DNA of 48,687 nt. Origin: an uncultured Bacilli bacterium. Its GTDB lineage: Bacteria > Bacillota_I > Bacilli_A > RF39 > UBA660. The translations under genes were made by a program, and so were the position numbers. The notes beneath the pieces are model-generated. The model saw only the letters and a list, made by a program, of their open reading frames with translations. It had not been told where the DNA came from and did not search any database. How positions within the stretch are numbered: the stretch's first letter is position 1; the number at the start of each line of letters is the position of its first letter. Shown one piece after another: positions 368 through 48,101 of the stretch. Where the stretch lies: assembly GCA_944367495.1 (NCBI GenBank), contig CALVWP010000005.1, forward strand, positions 1 through 48,687, in the 5' to 3' direction.

Positions 368-433
368 AATACTTCGCTCCTCTTTATACATTATAACATT
401 TTTTTCTAAAAAGAAAAGGACACTAACAAAGTG

Positions 434-10519: not shown

Positions 10520-11605
10520 CTATTCTTTAGCGCCCATTTTCTTAATAACAACATCATATATAATTCCAATACCTATAATTGTCGAAAGCATAGATACGAT
10601 AAAACTAATACCTGGAATCAAATTTAAAATAAATAATATTGCATAGCCAAAAATACCCACCACTAGCATATTTATATCTTTGTTAAAAAACTTTTGCCAT
10701 AATTTAAAACCAAGTAGATAACCGGTAAAAACCGTTGATAAATAAACTATTATAAAATATAAAGCTAATAAAATAAGAGCAAGTGGAATACCAATTGTCA
10801 TCAAAAGTAAAATCAATATCACAATCGGTACAAATATTAAAAATAATAGTCCTTTTGTAAACGTTTCCATACCTTTATTAAAATCAAATTTTTCATATTC
10901 ATTTTGTATATTTATAAACATTTTAGAAGCCGCTAAACTAAGCACAGCAAAAATCAAAATAACTGACATAAAAGACCAAATCTTATTCATAATTAAATTA
11001 GCTAAAGATTCTTCTTCATTTTGTATTTCTTTAGTTTTAATAATCTCGCCTTTTACAGTTCCTTTTTCTATACTTGCTTCAGCATCACTAGGATAAGATA
11101 AATTACCACCTATTTGTGTATCACTATCAACTTTTAAACTTGTCGCATATACTTTAACATTACCCTCAATCTTAACTCCATCAAAACTAACAGAAGATGC
11201 ATATACACTTATATTTCTAGAAATAGTTCCACTAATTTTTACATCAGCGCCCGCTATCACCACATCACGGTTTAACTTAGCCCCTTTCTTAATGTCGATC
11301 AAATTACCAGCTATAAATGCATCTTTATTAACCTGTCCATCAACTTCAAGCGAATTACCCGCAAAAACAGCATACTCACTGTCACCGTTAAAAACTACCT
11401 GATTTCCAAGTAAAAAACTTACTCCATCCGCACTTCCATCCATCTGGACGTTTGCTCCTGCTAAAACAGTAGATCCTGCCACCTTATCTTCTGATTTTAT
11501 ATCAGAATCAATCATTCCATAAAAATGATCAACCGTCTTAGCCTGAACCGTTCCCACACATACAAAAAGCATTGCTATAAATATTAATAATTTTTTCATA
11601 TTCAC
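10520..11605 (-). CDS. Membrane protein with an N-terminal repetitive beta-rich (bactofilin/polymer-forming-like) ectodomain and a C-terminal multi-TM domain
   Basis: Signal peptide MKKLLIFIAMLFVCVGTVQA. Repeated G..V...G pattern. Four or five C-terminal TM helices. No firm family call. Confidence 0.5.
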   Translation of the reverse strand: MNMKKLLIFIAMLFVCVGTVQAKTVDHFYGMIDSDIKSEDKVAGSTVLAGANVQMDGSADGVSFLLGNQVVFNGDSEYAVFAGNSLEVDGQVNKDAFIAGNLIDIKKGAKLNRDVVIAGADVKISGTISRNISVYASSVSFDGVKIEGNVKVYATSLKVDSDTQIGGNLSYPSDAEASIEKGTVKGEIIKTKEIQNEEESLANLIMNKIWSFMSVILIFAVLSLAASKMFINIQNEYEKFDFNKGMETFTKGLLFLIFVPIVILILLLMTIGIPLALILLALYFIIVYLSTVFTGYLLGFKLWQKFFNKDINMLVVGIFGYAILFILNLIPGISFIVSMLSTIIGIGIIYDVVIKKMGAKE

Positions 11606-11609
11606 CCTC

Positions 11610-12209
11610 CTAATAAGTAACCTCTAAATAACCGTCCGGCACCTTAAATAAATCATCATCAGCCTTACCTTTCATTAAATTAAATCTATAAAACAAAGTT
11701 ATCTGTATACCTTGATATTTTATATATACTAAATCATCTCCACTAAAATAATATGTTGACTGTTCATTATCATAAACATATTTTTCATATATATACTTTT
11801 TCCCATAAATTTTCTCTTCACCAGTCTCATACCCTTTAGTTCTCAAACCTTTTATATCATTAGGTAAAATACCATGAGAATAATCCTTAACCGCACTTTC
11901 TTGCTTGTTATAATTTTTCATCTGTCCATCAATATTATAAACATAACCATCTTTCCAAATATTTATAACATTAATAACTCCATCCATCTCATAGTAATAC
12001 TCATCACCTTTTCTTGCCATAATTATTTTAGTATCATCATTTTTACTATTATTTCGGTCCCAAAGTTCTAAATAATAATTATTAGGATCTAAATCTTTAA
12101 AAAATAAATAAGTCTTAGAATCACCATTTGCTTTATCAATAGTCTGCGTTTCCATCCCACATCCTACAAGTAACAAAGTAAATACACAAATTATTATTTT
12201 TTTTATCAT
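11610..12209 (-). CDS. Lipoprotein, function unknown
   Basis: Lipobox MIKKIIICVFTLLLVGCG. Tyr/Asp-rich beta-type sequence. Confidence 0.55.
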   Translation of the reverse strand: MIKKIIICVFTLLLVGCGMETQTIDKANGDSKTYLFFKDLDPNNYYLELWDRNNSKNDDTKIIMARKGDEYYYEMDGVINVINIWKDGYVYNIDGQMKNYNKQESAVKDYSHGILPNDIKGLRTKGYETGEEKIYGKKYIYEKYVYDNEQSTYYFSGDDLVYIKYQGIQITLFYRFNLMKGKADDDLFKVPDGYLEVTY

Positions 12210-13474
12210 TTTGATCTAGCCCTCAAATACTCCGCAAATCCTAATAATAATTTTTTCTTTTCTAAATCTAAAAAGTCCAAATCTAAAATAGCTTTAAAAC
12301 TTTCATTAAATAACTCATCCATCATTTTTTCCGCATAATCGTGAGCTCCTGATTTATCAAAAATTTCCTTAACCTTTTCCATATCACTAATCTTAACATT
12401 TTTACCATAATATTTTAAAAGTTCATCTTTATATTCAGTATTTATAACATAAGCATATAAAATAGTTTGTTTAAACTCACTAACATCAGAAGTAACTGAT
12501 TTCCCTATATGCTTCTCATCCCCATAAATACCAATCAAATCATCTTTAATCTGAAAAGCCACTCCTAAATTAATCAAAGCATCTTCTAACCTATGTGTCT
12601 TTTCCTCATCACAGCCTCCTAAAATAGCTCCTAAAACATAAGGCCCAACCACTGAATACCAAGCAGTTTTTAACTTATAAATTTCCATAACATGACTTTC
12701 TACATCTTCTTCACCATAAAACTCTTCATAAAATGGTAAAATAACATCCACCATTTCTCCCTCACAAGTTTTAATAGCCACATCATTATAATATTCTAAA
12801 ACCCGATCTAAATTTTCATTATTTCTATAATTTTTAACAATCACCTGTAAAGCTAAATAAAACCCTAAATCACCTAAACATAAAGCCATTGAATTGCTGG
12901 TGTCTTTTCTCTTTACCTCAAAATCATTTCCCCCTTTAATCTGATCACTGTATATTTTTTGATATTTAATAGGAATTGTATCTAAACCTCTTCTTTTATC
13001 AGCTTTATCAATAATATCATCATGAATCAAAATAGAAGTTTGAAATAACTCTAAAGCAATACCTAAAGCTAAATAATCATTATCATTCTTAAAACTTTGA
13101 TAGCCTAAAGCAATTAAACATGCTCTTAAAAACTTACCACCTTTATTACTGGAAGTAAATTGTTCTAAAGCCTCCTGTAAAAACCTGTTATTATAACCTT
13201 TAACAAATAAATCATTGTAATCATCCATCTTTAAAACAAATTCATCTTTAACCTTTAAATAATATTTCAAAAAGGAATACATTACCTCTATTTTTTTTAC
13301 TTCTCCATCTTCATCTAAAATAAATCCAATTTTTTTATTATATAAATTTTTATCACCTAAAAACCATCTTAAAAACTCTTCCCCATTTTTTAAAACAACA
13401 ACCTCATCATTATTATATTCCCTATTACTTATAACATAATCGTTTTCTTTTATTATCTTATCAACCTCAGACAT
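12206..13474 (-). CDS. Polyprenyl (trans-isoprenyl) diphosphate synthase with an N-terminal extension
   Basis: First and second Asp-rich motifs LIHDDIIDKAD and FQIKDDLIG. Chain-length specificity cannot be called. Confidence 0.85.
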   Translation of the reverse strand: MSEVDKIIKENDYVISNREYNNDEVVVLKNGEEFLRWFLGDKNLYNKKIGFILDEDGEVKKIEVMYSFLKYYLKVKDEFVLKMDDYNDLFVKGYNNRFLQEALEQFTSSNKGGKFLRACLIALGYQSFKNDNDYLALGIALELFQTSILIHDDIIDKADKRRGLDTIPIKYQKIYSDQIKGGNDFEVKRKDTSNSMALCLGDLGFYLALQVIVKNYRNNENLDRVLEYYNDVAIKTCEGEMVDVILPFYEEFYGEEDVESHVMEIYKLKTAWYSVVGPYVLGAILGGCDEEKTHRLEDALINLGVAFQIKDDLIGIYGDEKHIGKSVTSDVSEFKQTILYAYVINTEYKDELLKYYGKNVKISDMEKVKEIFDKSGAHDYAEKMMDELFNESFKAILDLDFLDLEKKKLLLGFAEYLRARSK

Positions 13475-13561
13475 ATCAAATCCTCCTAAAATAATTGTAC
13501 CAAATCGCTGAACCGAAGTCTAGTAACCTTAAAAACAAAACAAATTAAAAATTTTTACACT

Positions 13562-13585
13562 CAAAAGCGACCGCTCAGCGATCGC
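13562..13585 (-). terminator. Rho-independent terminator ending the remote DGR-target transcript
   Basis: GC-rich hairpin GCGATCGCTGAGCGGTCGC followed by TTTT on the minus strand. It lies just distal to the conserved 146-nt module. Confidence 0.55.
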
Positions 13586-13652
13586 ACCTATACTTGCTTT
13601 TTAGCTATTTTACTGCATTTATTTATTCACATACATTTTTTATATATTTTAT

Positions 13653-13798
13653 ATTACTAGCATTATCCCTAAAAATTCGTGTCAATTGCTTAGATCATCA
13701 AGCAATTGACAATCCCTTGCGAGGTCTCGTTTTCACTCGCCCCGCTTTCCAAAACTCCTTTGGAGTTTTGCTTATGTGAAAAACTTTCATTTATCACC
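13653..13798 (-). repeat. Conserved 146-nt post-VR module, copy 1, with two perfect hairpins (13681..13710 and 13750..13770)
   Basis: Identical to 46363..46508 (offset exactly 32,710 bp) except inside the two hairpin loops. Stems are GTCAATTGCTT/AAGCAATTGAC and CAAAACTCC/GGAGTTTTG. Confidence 0.9.
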
Positions 13799-15064
13799 CT
13801 AATTTATCACAAACGGATCTAAAGCTTCTCCACTTCCACTCAAGCTGATATCTGAACTTAGAGTAATGGCGGGAAGAACCGCAATAGCATTACGCGCGGT
13901 GTAGCTGTCCAAATAGCCGTAGGTGCGCACAACAAAGACGCTGAAAGAATCACTGGCATAAGGCGATATTGTCCAATAATCTGTTCCTTTAACTAGCCAA
14001 TTCGTTGTTTTACATGTATTATAGTTATCATTATTTAAACTTAAACTTCCACATTGATCTTTGTTTGTATTGGCTCTTAAATATTCACTGGCTGTAATGA
14101 GTCCTACACTGGCTGTCTGTGACTGTGTTCCATTTTCAGCTGCTATTTGATCGGCTAAATCGTTATTATCATAAGTTTCTCCACCTATACTCCATGTACT
14201 AGGTACTATCTTATCTTGATTTGTCGTTATACTCTCTAAATATTCGCCATTTAAATATGTCTTTAAATCAGCTGGTCTATCCCAACTGTTTGAACCCATT
14301 GATACACCAGTTGTATCAAATGTTCTTTTGGAAAGTAATTCATTTCTGACAATCTTTATTCTACCATCTGCTTCGACTGAAAGTATTCGCCATGTTTCAT
14401 TGTTAAAAGTGATATAGTTGTTAGGATTAGTTCCTTTATAAATAAATCTACCACTTTCATATTCATCTTGATATAATCCATCACCTTCAGTAACAGCTAA
14501 TGCTTTTAAATCATCTGAAGTAATTTCAGATGGTGTTGGTGGGATTACTGTACCATTACTTTGTCCATAATCTAATGTTACCGTAATTGTGGCAGTCGTA
14601 TTTTCTGGTTGACTGGTAATACTTGGGTTATAAGTTACTATTACCGTTAATATATCAGTCTCTGATGCTTTTAATTCATCTCCCTCTTCTATTCCACTTG
14701 TCTCAAACGTTATAGCTTCATTATTTGAATTATTTACTTTTATGCTATTTAAAACAGCATCTATATTTCCCTCATTAGCTACCGTTATATCATATTTCAT
14801 CGAATCTCCCGGTGATACTAAATTTGTTTTAAAAGTAGCTGTTGTATCTGTATAACTAGGTTCTATGGCATTACTTGCACTCCCACTTTGTACATTACTT
14901 TGTATATCAGTTATTCTAACTAAGAAATTACTTCTTATATTAGATGTACCGGTTATTTTTAACTGACTTTGAAATGCGGCATAACCTACTACCATTATCA
15001 ATAATATCGCACATAGTCCCATTATCATATAATTTCTCTGCGTCCTATTTAATCTTCTATTCAT
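13799..15064 (-). CDS. DGR target protein, remote copy: signal-anchored secreted/surface protein with a hypervariable C-terminal domain
   Basis: Paralog of 46509..47777. N-terminal anchor NYMIMGLCAILLIMVVGYAAF. The C-terminus contains VR1. Start taken at ATG 15064 after GGGAGTGA; the track start is a GTG inside the RBS. Confidence 0.85.
   Translation of the reverse strand: MNRRLNRTQRNYMIMGLCAILLIMVVGYAAFQSQLKITGTSNIRSNFLVRITDIQSNVQSGSASNAIEPSYTDTTATFKTNLVSPGDSMKYDITVANEGNIDAVLNSIKVNNSNNEAITFETSGIEEGDELKASETDILTVIVTYNPSITSQPENTTATITVTLDYGQSNGTVIPPTPSEITSDDLKALAVTEGDGLYQDEYESGRFIYKGTNPNNYITFNNETWRILSVEADGRIKIVRNELLSKRTFDTTGVSMGSNSWDRPADLKTYLNGEYLESITTNQDKIVPSTWSIGGETYDNNDLADQIAAENGTQSQTASVGLITASEYLRANTNKDQCGSLSLNNDNYNTCKTTNWLVKGTDYWTISPYASDSFSVFVVRTYGYLDSYTARNAIAVLPAITLSSDISLSGSGEALDPFVIN
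13857..13966 (-). repeat. DGR variable repeat VR1 (remote target), including IMH at its 3' (low-coordinate) end
   Basis: 110 bp, collinear with TR 46230..46339. In the variable part, 19 of 20 differences fall at TR adenines on the coding strand; one non-A change is at 13923. The IMH-type end GCGGTTCTTCCCGCCATTACTCTAAG is identical to VR2. Confidence 0.9.
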
Positions 15065-15144
15065 TACTTTCACTCCCTATTTTCTAGTATAAATACTCAT
15101 AGCTATTTTATACCAAATTGTTATAAATTCTATCTTATAGTTAA

Positions 15145-15173
15145 ATATTAGCATTCAAATAAATGCCTGTCAA
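15145..15173 (-). promoter_or_regulatory. Sigma-A type promoter of the remote DGR target gene
   Basis: Minus strand reads TTGACA, 17 nt, then TGcTAATAT (extended -10). It lies about 75 nt upstream of the start codon. Confidence 0.55.
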
Positions 15174-15218
15174 GGAATTCAAATAAATTCTTGTTAAAAT
15201 TTTATTAGGGGTGCTAAA

Positions 15219-15434
15219 ATGTACTTGAGGAAATTAAAAGATTTGCATATTGATAACGATTTATATCAAAAAGAAGTTGCCGACATCCTCAAAATAACTA
15301 GACAACAATACGGTCTATATGAAAGTGGAAAAAGAGATATTCCTATAGACTTATTAATTAAATTGGCTGATTTTTATCATGTCAGTACCAATTATATTTT
15401 AAATAGAACCAAGCAAAAAGAGTTAGTTAAATAA
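15219..15434 (+). CDS. XRE-family helix-turn-helix transcriptional regulator
   Basis: 71 aa. HTH_3 signature YQKEVADILKITRQQYGLYESGKRDIPIDLLIKLADFYHVSTNYIL. Divergent from the remote DGR target. Confidence 0.85.
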   Translation: MYLRKLKDLHIDNDLYQKEVADILKITRQQYGLYESGKRDIPIDLLIKLADFYHVSTNYILNRTKQKELVK

Positions 15435-32349: not shown

Positions 32350-32763
32350 TTATCTCTTAGAGAATTGTGGAGCTCTACGCGCACCTTTAAGTCCTGGTTT
32401 CTTTCTTTCTTTAACTCTAGAATCACGAGTTACAAAACCAGCTCTTTTTAAAATTTTTCTATAACTATCTTCTTTACCTTCGTTTTCTTTATCGTACTCA
32501 AGTAAAGCTCTAGTAATACCTAAACGAATCGCACCTGTTTGACCAGTAAATCCGCCACCATTAACTTTAACAGTAATATCAAATGTATTTTCATTATTTG
32601 TTGCAACTAAAGGTTGCATTAAATCCATAATATTAGTTTCATATGGGAAGAACTCTCTTACATCTCTACCATTTACCGTAATAGTTCCTTTCCCAGGCAC
32701 CATCTGTACTCTAGCAATAGATGCCTTTCTTCTACCAGTTCCTACAAACTTTCTAGTTTCCAT
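32350..32763 (-). CDS. rpsI: 30S ribosomal protein S9
   Basis: [12 protein letters not shown] near the N-terminus and C-terminal [17 protein letters not shown]. Confidence 0.97.
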
Positions 32764-40655: not shown

Positions 40656-41085
40656 TTAATTTTTCAGTAAATTATAACAATTTCCCCACTTTAAATGGCC
40701 TTTATAACTATTTATAATTTGTAAAGCTTTTCTTTCATCCACCTTACCCATTTTTATAACCCTCATTTTTCTTTTAAACCGCTTCTTTGTGTCTTTCCTA
40801 ACTTTCATAATAATTTTATTATTCCAAATATAAAACCTAAATCCTAAAAAACCTATACCCTCTTTACTGACATTAATAATTTTCGTTTTCTTATTTAATT
40901 TTAACTTATATTTACTAACCATTTCCTCTATTTTCTTTAAACAATACTTTAAATATTTCTTGTCAGAGGAAAGTAATAAACCGTCATCCATATACCTTAT
41001 GTAATATTTAATGTGTAATTTTTCTTTAATAAAATGATCCAATTCATTTAAATAAAATACCGCCATGATTTGACTAGTCATATTC
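40656..41085 (-). pseudogene. DGR reverse transcriptase, C-terminal fragment (split by RIT insertion)
   Basis: Begins ..IGN-MTSQIMAVFYLNELDH (RT motif 4, SQ). Contains RYMDDGLLL (YxDD catalytic motif) and a thumb-like C-terminus. The frame continues from 44539 once 41092..44542 is removed. Confidence 0.88.
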
Positions 41086-41115
41086 CCTATATTATGTAAA
41101 TCTTTACATAAAATT

Positions 41116-41193
41116 GGTTATAGCAACTAAAATATTATAGAAAGTAATATGTGAGAAAGCTTATATTTACAAGAATTTATTTTATTAATTTTT
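41116..41193. repeat. RIT terminal inverted repeat, left
   Basis: GGTTATAGCAACTAAAATATTATAGAAAGTAATATGTGAGAAAGCTTATATTTACAAGAATTTATTTTATTAATTTTT is the exact reverse complement of 44461..44538. Confidence 0.9.
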
Positions 41194-41251
41194 GCATAAT
41201 ATTATTGCATTTTTTTAATAATTTTGAAAATACTAGTTTTAGGTGAATTTT

Positions 41252-42475
41252 ATGGAACGATTAAATTTGAAAGATTTATTGAACCGAGCTGAAAAAATTT
41301 TAAGAGAAAAAAAATATAGTGAGAGTACAATTCAAGATTATAAGTATGTTTGGAAAAAATTTTATAATATATGTGAATTATGTAATATAAAATATTTCGA
41401 TTTAGAATTGGCAAAAAAATTTTTAAAAATATATTATAATATTGATTTAAAAAATGGAAAAGGAAGATTATATACAAGAAGAATGCGTAGTATATATGTA
41501 TTAGATTCTATTGATAGGAATAAACCAATAAAAAATTTTAGACCTAAAGTAGAAAAAAGGTTACCAGAAGAATTTAATGATATTTTTTATGAATATGATG
41601 AATATTTAAAATCTAATTATTCTTATAATACTATAATGGCAAGTGAGAAAGTATTAGTTGATTTTTTTAAATATTTAAAACAAAATAATATAAATTCAAT
41701 AGAAAATATAGCAATTCAAAATATATATAATTTTGTAAATTCTATTAATACTCAAAAATATTCCTTAAATACAATATATGAAATTAAATATAAATTAAAA
41801 AATTTTTTTAAATATTTATATAATAATCATAAATATAAATTTGATGGAACTGATATTTTTCCAAAAATTGCAAAATTTGAAAGAAGTAAATTGCCATCTT
41901 ATTATACAATAGATGAAATAAATCAAATTTTAAAACAAGTAGATAGAAATACAAAAAAAGGAAAACGAGATTTTGCAATTCTTTTATTAGCAATTGTATA
42001 TGGATTAAGAAACTCAGATATTGTACATTTAAAAAAAGAAAATATTTTATGGAATGAAAATAAAATTGAGTTAGTTCAATATAAAACTAAAAGATTATTA
42101 GAATTACCTTTAACTGAAAATGTGAAATATTCATTATTAGATTATTTAAAAAATGCAAGACCAAAAATTAACACACCATATATTTTTTTACCAACAAAAC
42201 CACCTTATACTTATACTGATATGAAAAATTATTCTTCATTATATAAATCAGCTGAACAATATATAAATAAAGCAGGTATAGATGTAAAGAATAGAAAAAG
42301 AGGATTACATTCATTAAGACATAGTCTTGCATCTAATATGTTAAAAAATAACATTGAAATATCAACAATTTCAGGAGTCTTAGGTCATAGTAACATCAAT
42401 GTTACAAATATATACTTAAACATAAGTGAAAATCAGTTGAGAAAACTTGCATTGGAGGTTCCAAAATATGAATAG
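41252..42475 (+). CDS. Tyrosine recombinase, RIT subunit A-like
   Basis: Catalytic residues: R (YGLRNSD), HSLRHS, GHSNINVTNIY. Start at ATG 41252 after AGGTGA. Confidence 0.85.
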   Translation: MERLNLKDLLNRAEKILREKKYSESTIQDYKYVWKKFYNICELCNIKYFDLELAKKFLKIYYNIDLKNGKGRLYTRRMRSIYVLDSIDRNKPIKNFRPKVEKRLPEEFNDIFYEYDEYLKSNYSYNTIMASEKVLVDFFKYLKQNNINSIENIAIQNIYNFVNSINTQKYSLNTIYEIKYKLKNFFKYLYNNHKYKFDGTDIFPKIAKFERSKLPSYYTIDEINQILKQVDRNTKKGKRDFAILLLAIVYGLRNSDIVHLKKENILWNENKIELVQYKTKRLLELPLTENVKYSLLDYLKNARPKINTPYIFLPTKPPYTYTDMKNYSSLYKSAEQYINKAGIDVKNRKRGLHSLRHSLASNMLKNNIEISTISGVLGHSNINVTNIYLNISENQLRKLALEVPKYE

Positions 42476-43430
42476 TAATAACTTTATAGGACCTTTTAAA
42501 AATGTTGCTCCATTATATATTGAATATAAAAAAAGTTTAGGATTTGAGGCTAAGTCAGAATATAATGAATTGAAAAAATTAGATAGATATTTTTATAATA
42601 AAGGAATTAATGAAGTAAAACTTACAAAAGATATGGCAGAAGAATACGGAATTTTAAGAGAAAATGAATCTCCTAAAACTCAAGCCAAGCGATTATCTAT
42701 ATTAAAACAATTTGCTGTATATTTGCAAAAAATAGGATATTCAGATGTATATGTACATCACATAAAGCCTAATAAAATTGATTCCAAATTTAAACCATAT
42801 ATCTATTCAGAAAAAGATTTAAATATGATATTTGAATATTTAGACAAGCACCAATATGATACTAATTCAATATTTAATCGCGTTTTACCAATATTAATTA
42901 GAATACTATATGGGACTGGGCTTAGAAAAGGTGAAGTTATTAATTTAAAAAATGAAGACGTAGATCTGAATAAAAACATTATAACTATTTATAATGGCAA
43001 AGAAAATGTTACAAGAATAGTTCCAATCTCAGAAAGTCTTTCAGAATCAATTAAAATATACAAATCGAAATTTTTATGTAATAATCAATATTTTTTATGT
43101 GATTCTAAAGGAAATAAAATCAATTATCATATTACAGAATATTTTCAAAAAATATTAAAAAAAATAAATATATTGCGACCAGATGGGACTCCTCCAAGAT
43201 TTCACGATTTTAGATTTACATTTGCAGTAAATGCATTAGAAAAAATGGATAATAGTGGACAAGACTTATATACAACATTGCCTATTTTAAGTAAATATTT
43301 GGGACATAAAAATATAGAAGCAACAGAATATTATTTATTGTTAGCTAAAGATTATTTCGTTAATATAACTGATAAAGAGGAAAAATATTATAATGATTTT
43401 AAATTTATTAAGGATGATGAAAATGAATAA
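42468..43430 (+). CDS. Tyrosine recombinase, RIT subunit B-like
   Basis: R (GTGLRKGE), HDFRFT, GHKNIEATEYY. Start at ATG 42468 after GGAGG, in an ATGAATAG overlap with the upstream stop. Confidence 0.85.
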   Translation: MNSNNFIGPFKNVAPLYIEYKKSLGFEAKSEYNELKKLDRYFYNKGINEVKLTKDMAEEYGILRENESPKTQAKRLSILKQFAVYLQKIGYSDVYVHHIKPNKIDSKFKPYIYSEKDLNMIFEYLDKHQYDTNSIFNRVLPILIRILYGTGLRKGEVINLKNEDVDLNKNIITIYNGKENVTRIVPISESLSESIKIYKSKFLCNNQYFLCDSKGNKINYHITEYFQKILKKINILRPDGTPPRFHDFRFTFAVNALEKMDNSGQDLYTTLPILSKYLGHKNIEATEYYLLLAKDYFVNITDKEEKYYNDFKFIKDDENE

Positions 43431-44439
43431 AAAGGAATTAGATTATTATTTACAAAGGTTTTTAGATATTGAATTAAAAAAAAGTATTAATGTTTCTGAA
43501 AATACTATTATTTCGTATAAATTTGCTTTCATATCGCTTTTAGAATTTATTATTAAAAATTATAATAAAAATATTAAAGATATAAAAATTGAAACAATAA
43601 ATAAAAAAGTTATTATAGAATATTTAAATTATTTAGAATTAGTAAAGAAAAATTCTATTTCAACTAGAAATCAAAGATTAGCGGCAATAAAATCTTTTTA
43701 TAATTATTTAGCACTTGAAGAAATTGAATATTTGCCACTATGCAATGATATTCTTTCAATAAAAACAAAAAAAAGCAATCACAAAACAGTAAAATATTTA
43801 TCAAAAGAAGGTGTAAAAGAAATATTATCTTTACCAAACACTTCGACTAAGCAAGGTATTAGAGATTTAGCTATATTAACTTTATTATATGATTCTGGAG
43901 CAAGAGTTCAAGAATTAATAACGTTAAACATATGTGATTTAAATTTAAAAAATAAAACATTAAATTTATATGGCAAAGGAAGAAAAAATCGTACAATACC
44001 TTTATTAAGACAAACAATAAAAATTTTAGAAAAATATATTAAAATCTATAAGATGAATTTTAATAGCCCTAGTTTGTTATTTTTTAATAGTAAAAAAGAA
44101 GCTCTATCAAGAATGGGTGTAACTTATATAATAAATAAATATGTAAAAATAGCTAAAAAAAAGAACCCAATAGAATTTCAAATAAAAGTAACACCACATA
44201 TTTTTAGACATTCTAAAGCAATGCATCTTTTAGAAAGTGGAGTGAACCTAATATATATTAGAGATTTTTTAGGTCACGAAAGTGTAACAACTACAGAAAT
44301 TTATGCTAAAGCAAATCCTGAGATAAAAAGAAAAGCAATAGAAACAAATTCAAAAGAACTTTCAAAAACGATTCAATTTTCAGATAAAGAAAAAAAAGAT
44401 TTATTATGGTGGCTTAAAAATTCTTTAAAAGAAAATTAA
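43423..44439 (+). CDS. Tyrosine recombinase, RIT subunit C-like
   Basis: R (SGARVQE), HIFRHS, GHESVTTTEIY. Start at ATG 43423, in an ATGAATAA overlap with the upstream stop. Confidence 0.85.
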   Translation: MNKKELDYYLQRFLDIELKKSINVSENTIISYKFAFISLLEFIIKNYNKNIKDIKIETINKKVIIEYLNYLELVKKNSISTRNQRLAAIKSFYNYLALEEIEYLPLCNDILSIKTKKSNHKTVKYLSKEGVKEILSLPNTSTKQGIRDLAILTLLYDSGARVQELITLNICDLNLKNKTLNLYGKGRKNRTIPLLRQTIKILEKYIKIYKMNFNSPSLLFFNSKKEALSRMGVTYIINKYVKIAKKKNPIEFQIKVTPHIFRHSKAMHLLESGVNLIYIRDFLGHESVTTTEIYAKANPEIKRKAIETNSKELSKTIQFSDKEKKDLLWWLKNSLKEN

Positions 44440-44460
44440 TATTTTTAATAAATATTATGT

Positions 44461-44538
44461 AAAAATTAATAAAATAAATTCTTGTAAATATAAGCTTTCT
44501 CACATATTACTTTCTATAATATTTTAGTTGCTATAACC
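44461..44538. repeat. RIT terminal inverted repeat, right
   Basis: Exact reverse complement of 41116..41193. About 10 further bp inward match with one mismatch. Confidence 0.9.
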
Positions 44539-45231
44539 TATAGGAAGTCCCTTACCTTTTTCGTATAATGGAATATTTTCTATCTCTTTAATCACTTTCT
44601 TATAATGATTATTTAAAATATTCATATTTTGCACTTTATTTAACTCTTTATCTTTTAAAAACTGTATTTCCCCATTAACATAATCCATATCAGTCGATTT
44701 TATTATTTTCCAAATAATATTTAAACTATCTTTATCTTTTATCTTTGTTTTTAATAAATCAAATAAAATTTCATGATCAATACTATAAAAATATTTACTT
44801 ATATCAAATTTCAAAGCATAAATAGTATTCCCCTTTAATTCATTTAAATATTTCTTTAAATATCTAATTCCATAGTGCGTTCCCTTATTTTTTCTAGTAG
44901 CTACATTCGTATCAATCAAACATTTATCTAAAACCGGTAATAAAATCTTATCAGCTACCACATGATTAATTAACTTATCACTAATATTTTGACTCATTAT
45001 AATTCTATATTTTGGCTCTTTAATTAAAAATATATTATACTTACTAGGCATATAATTTTTATCATTAATTATTTTTTTAACTCTAGCTAAATTAACCGAA
45101 TAAAAATCTTCAAACTTTCTTATTTTAACTTTATTCTTAGTATTAACTCTTATTTGCCTTAAATAAACTCTCTTAATATCTTCAAAAGTAATACTATCAT
45201 ATAACTTTCTTTTCATATTTAATCCATCCAT
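44524..45231 (-). pseudogene. DGR reverse transcriptase, N-terminal fragment (frame runs into the RIT repeat and stops)
   Basis: RT motifs 1-3 (EPKYRIIMSQNISDKLINHVV, ATRKNKGTHYG, ALKFDISKYFYSIDH). Native sequence ends ...KGLPIG at 44539. The last residues YSN and the stop are encoded by the RIT inverted repeat. Confidence 0.88.
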
Positions 45232-45956: not shown

Positions 45957-45997
45957 ATAAAAAAGCAATACCAAATAATCAAATAAAGGTATTGCTT
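45957..45997 (-). terminator. Terminator/attenuator-like hairpin between the TR region and the accessory genes
   Basis: Minus strand AAGCAATACC, 15-nt loop, GGTATTGCTT, then TTTTAT, immediately followed by RBS GGGAGGG and ATG 45942. Confidence 0.45.
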
Positions 45998-46229
45998 AAA
46001 TTTAAAAATATAGGTTTTATCATATCATATCTTTTTCGAAATTTCTAAAATTATAATTTACATATTCCATCATAATTATAACTCTTTCCTACTAAAGTTA
46101 TCTCTGACTATATTTAGTTTTTAGTCAGTAATTTTATTAAGGATATATGAAACCCTAATTACTAACAAGGAATAACACTTATTCTCTAATCTTTTCTTTA
46201 TGACCATATTAGTTCATAAACCATAGTGC

Positions 46230-46339
46230 TTTAGAGAGTTGGCGGGAAGAACCGCATTAGTATTATTCGCGTTGTTGTTGTTCAAATTGCCGTTGCTGTT
46301 CACATTAAAGACGTTGTTAGAATTACTGGCATTAGGCGA
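46230..46339 (-). repeat. DGR template repeat (TR)
   Basis: 110 bp. The coding-strand reading encodes SPNASNSNNVFNVNSNGNLNNNNANNTNAVLPANSL (15 AAY codons, 33 adenines in the variable part). Collinear with VR2 and VR1. The 3' end (IMH*) GCGGTTCTTCCCGCCAACTCTCTAAA differs from the VR IMH at 4 positions. Confidence 0.92.
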
Positions 46340-46362
46340 ATAAAACTAACAAAAAGTCCCAC

Positions 46363-46508
46363 ATTACTAGCATTATCCCTAAAAATTCGTGTCAATTGCT
46401 TGATGATCCAAGCAATTGACAATCCCTTGCGAGGTCTCGTTTTCACTCGCCCCGCTTTCCAAAACTCCAAAGGAGTTTTGCTTATGTGAAAAACTTTCAT
46501 TTATCACC
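46363..46508 (-). repeat. Conserved 146-nt post-VR module, copy 2, with hairpins at 46391..46420 and 46460..46480
   Basis: Identical to 13653..13798 apart from the two hairpin loops (GATGATCC vs AGATCATC; AAA vs TTT). Confidence 0.9.
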
Positions 46509-47777
46509 CTAATTTATCACAAACGGATCTTCAACTTCTCCACTTCCACTCAAGCTGATATCAGAGCTTAGAGTAATGGCGGGAAGAACCGCACCAGTAC
46601 TAAACGCGCCGTCGCTGGACAAAGTGCCGTCGCTGCTCACACGAAAGACGCTGGAAGAACTACCGGCATAAGGCGATATTATCCAATAAAAACTGCCTTT
46701 AAATAGCCAATTCGTCGTTTTACATATATCTTTGTTATCATTATTTAAACTAAAACTTCCACATTGTTCTTTATTTGTATTGGCTCTTAAATATTCACTG
46801 ACTGTAATTAAACCTACACTGGATGTCTGTGACTGAGTTCCATTTTCTTTTGTTATTTGTCCAGCTAAATCATTATTATCATATGTTACTTCTCCTATAC
46901 TCCATGTACTAGGTACTATTTTATCTTGGTTTGTTGTTATACTCTCTAAATATTCGCCATTTAAATATGTCTTTATATCTGCTGGTCTATCCCATTCATT
47001 TGAGCCATATGTTCCACCAGTTGTATCCCATGCTCTAGCCGAAAGTAATTCATTTCTAACAATCTTTATTCTGCCATCAGCTTCTACTGATAATATTCGC
47101 CATGTTTCATTGTTAAAGGTGATATAGTTGTTAGGATTAGCTCCTTTATAAAAGTATCTTCCACTTTCATATTCATCTTGATATAATCCATCAGCTCCAT
47201 CTGAAGCAAGTGGTAGAGTTATTCCTCCTACTGTTGGTCCTTCTGGCGTTGGTGGAGTTACTGTACCATTACTTTGTCCATAATCTAAAGTTACGGTAAT
47301 TGTTGCTGTCGTATTTTCTGGTTGACTGGTAATACTTGGGTTATAAGTTACTATTACCGTTAATATATCACTCTCTGATGCTTTTAATTCATCTCCCTCT
47401 TCTATTCCACTTGTCTCAAACGTTATAGCTTCATTATTAGAATTACTTACTTTTATACTATTTAAAACGGCATCAATATTTCCCTCATTAGCTACCGTTA
47501 TATCATATTTCATCGAATCTCCTGGTGATACTAAATTTGTTTTAAAAGTAGCTGTTGTATCGGTATAACTAGGCTCTATGGCATTACTCGCACTCCCACT
47601 TTGTACATTACTTTCTATACCAGTTATTTTAACTAAGAAGTTACTTGCTATATTAGATGTACCGGTTATTTTAAGCTGGCTTTGAAAAGCCGCATAACCT
47701 ACTGCCATTATTAAAAGTACTGCACACAGTCCCATGATCATATAATTTCGCTGCGTCCTATTTAATCTTTTATTCAT
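46509..47777 (-). CDS. DGR target protein, element-adjacent copy: signal-anchored secreted/surface protein with a hypervariable C-terminal domain
   Basis: Paralog of 13799..15064. Anchor NYMIMGLCAVLLIMAVGYAAF. VR2 encodes SPYAGSSSSVFRVSSDGTLSSDGAFSTGAVLPAITLS. Start at ATG 47777 after AAAGGAG. Confidence 0.88.
   Translation of the reverse strand: MNKRLNRTQRNYMIMGLCAVLLIMAVGYAAFQSQLKITGTSNIASNFLVKITGIESNVQSGSASNAIEPSYTDTTATFKTNLVSPGDSMKYDITVANEGNIDAVLNSIKVSNSNNEAITFETSGIEEGDELKASESDILTVIVTYNPSITSQPENTTATITVTLDYGQSNGTVTPPTPEGPTVGGITLPLASDGADGLYQDEYESGRYFYKGANPNNYITFNNETWRILSVEADGRIKIVRNELLSARAWDTTGGTYGSNEWDRPADIKTYLNGEYLESITTNQDKIVPSTWSIGEVTYDNNDLAGQITKENGTQSQTSSVGLITVSEYLRANTNKEQCGSFSLNNDNKDICKTTNWLFKGSFYWIISPYAGSSSSVFRVSSDGTLSSDGAFSTGAVLPAITLSSDISLSGSGEVEDPFVIN
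46567..46676 (-). repeat. DGR variable repeat VR2 with IMH
   Basis: All 22 differences from the TR in the variable part fall at TR adenines on the coding strand. The GC-rich GGTTCTTCCCGCC element is followed by the IMH. Confidence 0.92.
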
Positions 47778-47830
47778 TGCTCTCACTCCTTTATTATGAA
47801 TATTTAGTCGCTTATTTATGCTACAATTTT

Positions 47831-47978: not shown

Positions 47979-47997
47979 CCCCCCCCCCCCCCCCCCC
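47979..47997. repeat. C19 homopolymer (G19 on the gene strand) between -35-like and -10-like hexamers
   Basis: Counted directly: 19 consecutive C. Minus strand reads TTGAAG-TTT-G19-TAAAAT, a 22-nt spacer. Confidence 0.9.
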
Positions 47998-48076: not shown

Positions 48077-48101
48077 TTTTTTTTTCCCCCCCCCCCCCCC
48101 C
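48077..48101. repeat. T9C16 compound homopolymer (G16A9 on the gene strand)
   Basis: Counted directly. Nearby are A11 at 48050..48060 and G7 at 48163..48169. A consensus TTGACA (RC of 48109..48114) lies 7 nt upstream of G16 on the minus strand. Confidence 0.9.

Follow-up and report, generated by a model that had tools for sequence, protein, structure and literature searches.

The 48,687-nt stretch of DNA analyzed here (the window; contig CALVWP010000005.1, positions 1 to 48,687, with a GC content of 28%) belongs to an uncultured gut bacterium, a member of the Bacilli whose genome is small and low in GC, and carries a diversity-generating retroelement (DGR) with template repeat (TR), accessory genes, a split reverse transcriptase (RT) gene and an adjacent target gene. 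A second gene of the same family, in the interval 13653..15073, is very probably a genuine and long-standing non-adjacent target of this chromosomal element, whose TR occupies 46240..46339, to judge from the comparison of its variable repeat (VR1) with the TR and with the corresponding loci of related genomes. The cDNA information of this TR lineage has been written into VR1 separately from VR2, the variable repeat (VR) of the cassette-adjacent target. Both genes are followed directly by the same 146-nt module with four predicted hairpins (H0 to H3), which is probably a functional, conserved element. Coordinates of all features are collected in Table 1.

The TR was compared with the VRs over 99 positions, 33 of them A and 66 non-A in the TR. 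VR1 is altered at 19 of the 33 adenines and at one of the 66 other positions (Fisher p = 1e-10), VR2 at 22 of the adenines and none of the others (Fisher p = 3e-14), so that in both the differences fall essentially at TR adenines, as is the rule for DGR targets. The single exception in VR1 is at 13923, where the TR has G and VR1 has C. This base comparison agrees with the first-pass annotation, which had described VR1 as collinear with the TR and had listed the same 19 adenine differences and one other. The annotation had also proposed that each copy was diversified independently; 15 adenine sites are altered in VR1 and VR2 alike, and only 5 of these 15 to the same base, which argues that the two were indeed written separately. 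The 24-mer GGTTCTTCCCGCCATTACTCTAAG that forms the initiation of mutagenic homing (IMH) site is present in exactly two copies in the window, with 0 expected, one at the end of each VR. Both VRs end at the 3' side in GGTTCTTCCCGCC-ATTACTCTAAG and the TR in GGTTCTTCCCGCC-AACTCTCTAAAG -- an IMH at the VR end and a slightly different IMH* at the TR end. Non-adjacent targets have been recognized by A-to-N differences alone from the TR, with minor exceptions, and by lying outside any other DGR (PMC5758913); VR1 has these properties, with the one non-A exception.

Further evidence comes from relatives, all of them metagenome-assembled genomes (MAGs), among which are "Firmicutes bacterium CAG:822" and complete chromosomes of 1.3-1.5 Mb; loci in them are given L numbers, L001 being bin53 and L002 bin116, and the two module copies of the window are called win1 and win2. 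The remote locus is syntenic in L001, L089-L092 and L002, with a membrane protein gene, an XRE gene, the target and a polyprenyl synthase gene. The flanking genes are only 78-82% identical to those of the window (about 78-80% in bin116), so these loci belong to other species. Among the four VRs found in the XRE context (window VR1, L001, L089 and L094; full synteny is established for L001 and L089, and L094 has the upstream XRE gene in common only), 27 of the 33 TR-adenine sites are polymorphic, as against 3 of the 66 others (p = 2.5e-15).

A natural marker is provided by position 37 of the TR, which is not an adenine. It is T in the window TR and C in the TR of L099, a contig from another sample that is 99.38% identical to the window across 8.26 kb, and it is the sole non-adenine difference between the two TRs. 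T37 is present in both window VRs, and C37 in the VR of L099 and in the remote-locus VRs of L089 and L094. Non-adenine TR alleles thus pass from TR to VR, the remote VRs included, and the tracking of T37 and C37 is the natural equivalent of marker co-conversion. The TR alleles that are copied into VRs are built-in markers, and could make the requirements of the target site testable. At A sites the adjacent VR differs between the window and L099. The exceptional mismatch at 13923 is more plausibly explained by a point mutation that arose later, or by a rare non-A misincorporation. Descent from an older TR allele that had A there, like the TR of bin116, was also considered; it is the less parsimonious reading because VR1 carries the derived T37, which lies 5' of 13923.

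The sole other contig of the same species that covers VR1, L093, is 99.94% identical to the window and hence probably from the same strain, so that no independent within-species sample of VR1 was found. For each of two related target proteins, 6-7 contigs from up to six samples encode one and the same sequence, which indicates that diversification is not continuous in all lineages. As a separate observation, the adjacent target of L099, which has an intact RT, carries at 370..420 an IMH whose distal half reads GCC-CTCTATCTTTCC and not GCC-ATTACTCTAAGC. Its adjacent VR differs from its own TR at 14 positions, all of them A; since the differences are A-only in spite of the changed IMH, the distal half of the IMH is variable.

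The window DGR itself has been interrupted, a point missed by the first-pass annotation, whose observations on the two target loci were confirmed. The Pfam profile RVT_1 matches the RT gene in two pieces, 44524..45231 and 40656..41081, and no intact RT gene was found for this DGR in the window. Between the two parts lies an element of the recombinase-in-trio (RIT) type, with junctions reading ...CCTATAGG/TTATAGC... and ...TATAGG/GAATATG.... Removal of 41086..44536 rejoins the reading frame as ...GLPIGNMTSQ...YMDD..., the split lying between the GLPIG and N codons, and the joined fragments are 98-99% identical to uninterrupted 374-aa RTs. They contain motifs 4 and 5 of the RT (IGxxxSQ and YxDD), and the gene lies next to the TR. 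The IGxxxSQ motif is specific to DGR RTs. L099 has an uninterrupted RT, i.e., an empty site, and 44537/41091 is exactly where it ceases to align to the window; with the filled site in the window and the empty one in L099, the RIT insertion is polymorphic within the species. To judge from the gene as it stands, the window DGR cannot currently make a full-length RT, and with the RT split, VR1 and VR2 are a record of past activity.

The interrupting element has the defining features of RIT elements (Van Houdt et al. 2012, PMC3414803), which consist of three adjacent, overlapping tyrosine-recombinase genes in about 3.5 kb; gene trio, length and terminal inverted repeats are all as published. Unlike the published elements, which are from proteobacteria, it resides in low-GC gut Bacilli, at the same CCTATAGG site in the DGR RTs of three species, and with a filled/empty pair of sites. 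The same element (99.8% identical) is found at 13178..16632 of L006 and 2745..6205 of L025, in the same RT codon; the host RTs of these two other species are only 72-85% identical, and in one of them the orientation of the element is opposite. It is single-copy in each genome, and 3/3 copies are in DGR RT genes at the palindromic CCTATAGG, which encodes the P-I-G codons of GLPIGN. A near-palindrome of 32 nt, situated between the 3' part of the RT gene and the right inverted repeat, flips in step with the orientation of the element. These features suggest that the mobile element is site-specific and directed at DGR RT genes, or possibly that it is an excisable switch; the locus is an example of a DGR switched off by such an element.

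The remote target and the cassette-adjacent target are paralogs with 84% amino acid identity, as had been proposed; the gene, placed at 13799..15064 in the first-pass annotation, extends to a GTG at 15073. With the offset held at 32,710, the two loci are nearly identical at every position from 13653/46363 to about 14484, where a 3-nt linker indel moves the offset to 32,713, the genes staying alike beyond it. To the left of 13653/46363 the identity is at chance level (about 28%). The abrupt stop of homology that had been noted there thus holds in the window; it does not hold as a general rule, since in L001 and L089 a TR-like fragment follows the module. Both linker variants between the paralogs were found, in keeping with the mosaic history suggested for them. 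A database protein, P0010 (from an ENA contig of 2,180 nt), has the adjacent-type linker joined to a C-terminus and VR identical to VR1, and is either a true recombinant between the paralogs or a chimeric assembly of both copies.

From its N-terminus on, the remote target protein consists of a membrane anchor, an Ig-like domain, a linker and, at the C-terminus, a DUF6273 domain that contains VR1. Its Pfam score for DUF6273 is 27.1 bits (cut-off 23.5), and the Ig-like match is weak. An AlphaFold model is confident for the Ig-like domain only, the DUF6273 domain having a pLDDT (predicted local distance difference test) below 50, and sequence and profile searches of the PDB with the DUF6273 domain gave no match. 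The VRs of DGR targets usually occupy the C-terminus, in a variable domain of C-type-lectin-like or Ig-like type. The DUF6273 domains of other DGR targets have been modeled as C-type-lectin-like (PMC10743442).

The near-consensus promoter, the divergent XRE regulator gene and the separate terminator that had been reported for the remote copy are all present (Table 1), and there is no RT, avd or TR near 13653..15434. The region between the two loci encodes an HtrA-like protease, YfhO, VanZ, FAD oxidoreductases and polyprenyl synthase; with such ordinary chromosomal genes between them, the DGR is chromosomal and not phage-borne. Both targets are on the strand that has nearly all of the genes and a positive GC skew, so they are probably co-directional with replication, the orientation favored in a reconstituted DGR. 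The region of the GC-rich terminator (13560..13610), with an upstream AAAAAGCAAGTATAGGTGCGA motif, recurs behind the targets of L002 and L083 and, in looser form, of L010; it looks like a terminator cassette shared across genomic contexts and species.

The sense-strand RNA of the 146-nt module folds into the four hairpins with -45.9 kcal/mol (z = -5.1), and because the stems are palindromic the complement folds about equally well. In copy 1 the H1 loop is AAA, H2 is GC-rich, and H3 has a 13-bp stem and is terminator-like. Loop length is 3 nt in H1 and 6-8 nt in H3, the fold pairing two more bases of the 8-nt spacer of copy 1. The hairpin GTCAATTGCTT-N8-AAGCAATTGAC occurs exactly twice in the window, with 0 copies expected, and its stems are identical; exact counts of two each bear out the identity of both IMH and hairpin stems at the two loci that had been reported from the first reading. 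The window copies differ at 10 positions in 146 nt, all of them in the loops of two hairpins (H1, 13750..13770 / 46460..46480, and H3, 13680..13711 / 46390..46421), and the loops of copies 1 and 2 are mutual reverse complements, AAA/TTT in one case and GATGATCT vs GGATCATC in the other. Close relatives show all four combinations of the H1 and H3 loop states, so the inversions must be recurrent and tolerated; a more distant type of module also has an AAA/TTT pair. Flipped loops are the product expected from template switching or cruciform processing at perfect inverted repeats (quasipalindrome mutagenesis), and the footprint that hairpin formation in DNA would be expected to leave. H3 has a stem of 13-14 bp followed by CGAATTTTT and scores as an intrinsic terminator in both copies in a consensus scan; the predicted T-run, CGAATTTTTA in both copies, is weaker in bin116.

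Outside the loops the window copies are identical at 135/135 positions. Four-fold degenerate sites are identical at 34/52 (65%) in the adjoining C-terminal coding sequence (CDS) and at 47/60 (78%) in the N-terminal region, and the chance of 135/135 identity at 80% per site would be about 1e-13. To account for this difference, either selection or gene conversion limited to these 146 nt is needed. That the module is a neutral leftover of the duplication that made the paralogs, a view which the contiguity of the homology block with the duplicated gene would suit, is therefore very improbable: there are 0 substitutions in 135 non-loop positions beside four-fold sites of 65-78% identity, and the same element with the same boundary is found at the orthologous locus of bin116, where the flanks are about 78-80% identical. 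The first-pass annotation had suggested that the module is a functional unit for trans-targeting and not only a leftover; a discrete, conserved, target-specific element is well supported (135/135 as against 65% at four-fold sites), and a role in trans-targeting is possible.

Full copies of the module are known from eight distinct loci (win1, win2, L001, L089, L094, L025, L002 and L099); the alignment and consensus structure are based on 7 copies. In 8/8 of these, as well as in L083, which keeps only the first ~75 nt, the module directly follows the stop codon of an IMH-bearing target. Full copies end in ...GCTAGTAAT, except that of L094, which ends in ...GTAAC. What comes next varies: in cassettes it is a spacer and the TR; in the remote loci of the window and L002, AT-rich DNA and a GC-rich terminator; in L089, the 23-nt spacer of the cassette and then a TR-like, A-rich 3' gene fragment; in L001, a different spacer and a TR-like fragment; and in L094, a fragment of another paralog. 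Such varied sequence after a constant boundary marks the module as a discrete unit. In bin116 its first ~60 nt and last ~20 nt are almost unchanged and the H3 sequence is different, H3 being still pairable by eye, though alignment-based pair counts are out of register for the bin116 copies. L089 and L099 have a compensatory pair in H3, not the same one in the two, with a half-step in L001; for H0-H2, covariation statistics are uninformative because the stems are nearly invariant.

Among GTDB species representatives a 27-mer of the module and the IMH 24-mer match the same 3 loci only, co-occurring in 3/3; module-like sequence behind unrelated genes, which the first-pass annotation had named as a sign of a generic repeat or terminator, was not found there. 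The exact window hairpin had no match among these representatives, the module and hairpin patterns had no copy in collections of viral and JGI metagenome contigs, and an Rfam search with both module regions and the cassette gave chance-level matches only. A distant DGR cluster has a longer module which keeps a GCAAA-stem-loop-stem-TTTGG hairpin with other stem sequences; this type is found at the cassettes L006 and L019 and also at L009 and L011, which show no TR in the 260 nt inspected. A 30-aa open reading frame (ORF) within the module (13698..13790), preceded by a Shine-Dalgarno-like sequence, was rejected as a gene: its ATG is ACG in L025, L002 and L089, and the loop flips alter its length.

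That the module is just the 3' untranslated region (UTR) and terminator of a surface-protein family, with no part in the DGR, and that it accompanies the IMH because both belong to a recently spread gene 3' end, we consider improbable. The terminator score of H3 in both copies fits such a role, as do the apparent movement or conversion of target plus module between species as a block, and the diversified VRs of IMH-bearing targets that have no module. It is harder to reconcile with paralogs that lack the IMH (e.g., L044, L050 and L075) and many VR-bearing ones of other IMH classes, all of which are without the module; with the conservation of H0-H2 and of the 3' motif, which flank H3 and are kept more strictly than a terminator needs; and with a module that has stayed invariant while neighboring synonymous sites diverged by 35%. 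H3 is like a Rho-independent terminator in its stem followed by CGAATTTTT, but termination leaves the conserved H0-H2 and 3' motif unexplained.

Taken as a whole, the data are in our view best explained, with moderate confidence, by a long-standing non-adjacent target together with a target-side cis module whose H3 doubles as a terminator. The four-hairpin module travels, unchanged, with the IMH-bearing targets of this DGR lineage, and most likely acts in cis on the target side; H3 would end the target transcript, and H0-H2 would provide secondary structure beside the VR that helps the uptake of mutagenized cDNA, like the stem-loop next to the IMH in phage BPP-1. The stem-loop defined in BPP-1 is found 4-34 bp from the VR and is made up of 7-10 bp of GC-rich stem capped by a GRNA loop of 4 nt (Guo et al. 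2011, PMC3240598); it raises the efficiency of homing (PMC3240598; bioRxiv 10.1101/2025.08.18.670894), and a change of its loop from GAAA to CTTT abolished homing (PMC3240598). In a reconstitution in E. coli the stem-loop was proposed to act as a wedge that keeps the target single-stranded, being helpful and not essential, and it was reported to be non-universal among DGRs (bioRxiv 10.1101/2025.08.18.670894). A block of four hairpins beside the VR would, by analogy, fit this wedge idea. As in BPP-1, the inverted repeats here lie 3' of the IMH of the target, with none after the IMH* of the TR, the stems are kept by compensatory changes, and the role proposed is to make cDNA uptake more efficient, with no part in setting its site. 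Unlike the one stem of BPP-1 with its sequence-dependent loop, there are four hairpins over 146 nt, mostly AT-rich, with loops in both orientations.

A specific role of the module in trans-targeting, suggested by its sequence and distribution, is possible and must be put tentatively, as a number of observations weigh against it. No module hairpin has the form of the canonical DGR stem-loop (GC-rich, with a GRNA loop, about 4-34 bp after the VR): H0 starts 59 nt and H1 86 nt after the IMH, and most of the stems are AT-rich. The natural AAA/TTT inversions correspond to the very GAAA-to-CTTT change that abolished homing of BPP-1 (PMC3240598). L083, with half a module, differs from the window TR at 18 A and 1 non-A positions, and L095 and L096, of which L096 shares its sample of origin with L099, combine this IMH and an A-biased VR with the lack of a module; compared with the window TR they differ at 15-17 A and 4-5 non-A positions, and compared with the L099 TR allele at 3 and 5 non-A positions. 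In bin116 the remote VR (L002) is accompanied by a complete module and an IMH of identical sequence, and yet departs from its own TR at 7 non-A positions, as against 0 for the adjacent VR, so module plus IMH is no guarantee of equal homing; the remote module copy also has private changes, VR decay and module decay going together in this one case (n = 1). Target plus module is 88-97% identical between species, with flanks at 78-82%, which points to recent transfer or gene conversion that inflates the apparent conservation across species. A terminator role adequately explains H3. Homology to the cassette does not stop at the module in relatives; it continues into a TR-like fragment. The module is neither strictly required for an A-diversified VR nor sufficient to keep a remote VR up to date.

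A more far-reaching and rather unlikely version of target-side action is that IMH plus module is a portable "address label" for rewriting in trans, its hairpins extruding in single-stranded DNA at the replication fork and holding the target open for the cDNA; the recurrent loop inversions would then be the footprint of extrusion, and the full, half and absent modules would correspond to graded efficiencies of homing. If true, such a label would be a far larger determinant than the single GRNA stem-loop of BPP-1, with a different architecture.

The main rival to target-side action -- we consider it unlikely -- places the module on the donor side, as a structured 5' leader of the TR RNA (an upstream segment, a cDNA stop or an expression signal); remote copies would come from duplicated target-module-TR units that later lost the TR, gene conversion from the cassette keeping them alike. 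Directly upstream of the spacer and TR is indeed where the module lies in every cassette examined (window, L025 and L099, and for the distant type L006 and L019), and the BPP-1 template needs both upstream and downstream RNA segments (bioRxiv 10.1101/2023.10.23.563531). Behind the remote module of L089 come the 23-nt spacer of the cassette and a TR-like stretch rich in A, 3' gene fragments that resemble a TR or a VR lie past the module in L001 and L094, and copies within a genome share derived states (bin116 as compared with the window), i.e., show concerted evolution. On the other hand, the module is intact to the same 3' boundary at TR-less loci of two species (window and bin116 L002), the distant type likewise occurs at L009 and L011, with no TR in the stretch inspected, and the TR-like fragments at remote loci are without the conserved post-TR region, the presumed spacer (Sp) of the DGR RNA. 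A leader of this kind also sits badly with H3, which would stop transcripts just ahead of the TR, and with the result of a search for a sigma-70-type promoter for the TR RNA on the sense strand of the module, which found none, the spacings measured by hand being 12 or 20-21 nt.

A comparison of the module with spacer, TR and Sp RNA for pairing or similarity gave nothing beyond 8-mers, bar one match of 12/13 (E = 0.17 in a small search) between the last 13 nt of the module (13653..13665, TAATGCTAGTAAT) and the 5' end of TR and VR (46322..46334, TAATGCCAGTAAT); it may be a fossil TR start or a microhomology of rearrangement, and is statistically weak and only suggestive. The TR-like, A-rich fragments of paralog 3' ends that follow remote modules lie at 11445..11612 in L001, 9436..9660 in L089 and 2020..2200 in L094. 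They have a different IMH-like end, GGCGTCCGTCC..., the gene tail with a stop codon, and the beginning of another module, and have no post-TR region; that of L089 has an internal duplication. They may be a second template, a relic, or a route by which TRs arise from the 3' ends of targets.

Non-adjacent and remote DGR targets have been described in Treponema denticola and others in the survey of Wu et al. 2018 (PMC5758913), where "remote" means more than 100 kb. The present target is like those of the survey in having its VR outside the cassette, A-limited differences and the same IMH as the adjacent VR, and in belonging to a chromosomal DGR with an MSL-avd-RT set; at 32.7 kb it is "non-adjacent" and not of the survey's "remote" class, and, unlike the targets described there, its shared sequence goes on for 146 nt beyond the stop codon, in the form of a conserved unit of several hairpins. 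Already known are non-adjacent targets of DGRs, accessory genes of the MSL class and variable domains of the DUF6273 type. New are the extended, discrete and conserved 3' module common to adjacent and remote target genes, the natural gradation from a full through a half to an absent module, and the tracking of TR alleles into a remote VR; no description of such a module was found in open-access text. How the cDNA finds and enters its target is an unsolved step of mutagenic retrohoming, for which only one stem-loop, in one phage, has been dissected. The lineage is a natural comparison set, with one IMH next to a full, a half or no module, with cassette-adjacent and remote positions, and with intact and disrupted RTs among strains of one species. 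Should the module turn out to play no part in homing, the locus would be a non-adjacent DGR target of the ordinary kind.

The cassette is on the minus strand, in the order target, module, 23-nt spacer, TR with IMH*, post-TR region, MSL gene, avd and RT. Avd and a gene of the MSL class are the accessory genes of architecture D, described together with that class in the DGR survey (PMC5758913); the avd product, above its Pfam cut-off, scores 58 bits against the NCBIfam model DivGenRetAVD, which is below the cut-off of 80. The post-TR region ends in a terminator-like hairpin (45957..46003), which surfaced among weak Rfam matches only.

Table 1. Features of the two target loci, the DGR cassette and the RIT element in the window
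Feature	Position	Strand	Remarks
TR core	46240..46339	-	33 A and 66 non-A positions; 15 AAY codons
IMH* of TR (GGTTCTTCCCGCCAACTCTCTAAAG)	46228..46252	-	3' end of TR
VR1, collinear with TR core	13867..13966	-	
IMH of VR1 (GGTTCTTCCCGCCATTACTCTAAG)	13857..13880	-	same sequence as IMH of VR2
VR2	46577..46676	-	IMH at 46567..46590
Module copy 1	13653..13798	-	H0 13776..13797, H1 13750..13770, H2 13719..13745, H3 13680..13711
Conserved 3' motif of module copy 1 (TTTAGGGATAATGCTAGTAAT)	13653..13673	-	7-copy alignment
Module copy 2	46363..46508	-	H1 loop TTT, H3 loop GGATCATC, both inverted relative to copy 1
Remote target gene	13799..15073	-	ORF list; 424 aa from GTG start, 421 aa from ATG at 15064
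Promoter of remote target	15145..15173	-	TTGACA-17-TAATAT with upstream TG; consensus scan, 10/12 matches
Divergent XRE/HTH_3 regulator gene, 71 aa	15219..15434	+	Pfam HTH_3, E = 2.6e-10; syntenic in L001, L089, L094
GC-rich intrinsic terminator of remote locus	13567..13585	-	terminator scan
Cassette-adjacent target	46509..47786	-	425 aa from GTG, 422 aa from ATG at 47777; DUF6273
23-nt spacer between module and TR (GTGGGACTTTTTGTTAGTTTTAT)	46340..46362	-	same spacer after remote module in L089
Conserved post-TR region, presumed Sp of DGR RNA	45957..46227	-	same sequence after TR in L006, L019, L025, L099
MutS-domain-I-like accessory gene, MSL class, 134 aa	45538..45942	-	Pfam MutS_I 32.2 bits, cut-off 20.6
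avd, 114 aa	45197..45541	-	Pfam bAvd 48.1 bits, cut-off 40
RT gene, 5' part	44537..45231	-	ends ...GLPIG (CCTATAGG); RVT_1 profile 7-107
RT gene, 3' part	40656..41085	-	NMTSQ...YMDD...; RVT_1 profile 126-205
RIT element splitting RT gene, 3,451 bp	41086..44536	+	118-nt terminal inverted repeats; 6-nt TATAGG at both junctions
RIT tyrosine-recombinase genes, overlapping	41243..42475, 42447..43430, 43393..44439	+	Phage_integrase proteins; overlaps of 29 and 38 nt

Upstream of the adjacent target are two homopolymer tracts, 47979..47997 (C19) and 48086..48101 (C16) on the plus strand, i.e., G19 and G16 on the strand of the gene. The G19 tract lies between -35-like and -10-like hexamers (TTGAAG-ttt-G19-TAAAAT), and TTGACA-ttttata-G16- is followed by an A-run only, with no clear -10. 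A design of TTGACA/TTGCCA, G11-G15 and a TATAAT-like hexamer is found immediately before a target paralog in L031 and L028; L013, L029 and L030 have it in other places. Of the 9 G/C runs of at least 9 in 1.3 Mb of DNA, 8 are so arranged, the ninth (L077) being truncated by the contig end. It looks as if the G-tract promoters on target paralogs are phase-variable and the remote copy has a fixed consensus promoter, homopolymer lengths in the assemblies being unreliable; the surface-protein family appears to combine hypermutation with phase-variable promoters.

In a second DGR of a related complete genome (L013, OZ007038.1), the TR is split by an insertion of ~1.55 kb (11613..13163) with a 393-aa ORF, the RT of that cassette being intact. 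The ends of the insertion, ACGGACAGTTTT..., are inverted, and a duplication of 8 bp, GGGGTTTG, flanks it. The module-less remote VRs of OZ007038 were considered as a test of the module and set aside, L015 and L018 having an apparent insertion sequence (IS) element that abuts the gene end: the same ACGGACAGTTTT end adjoins the 3' ends of both target genes.

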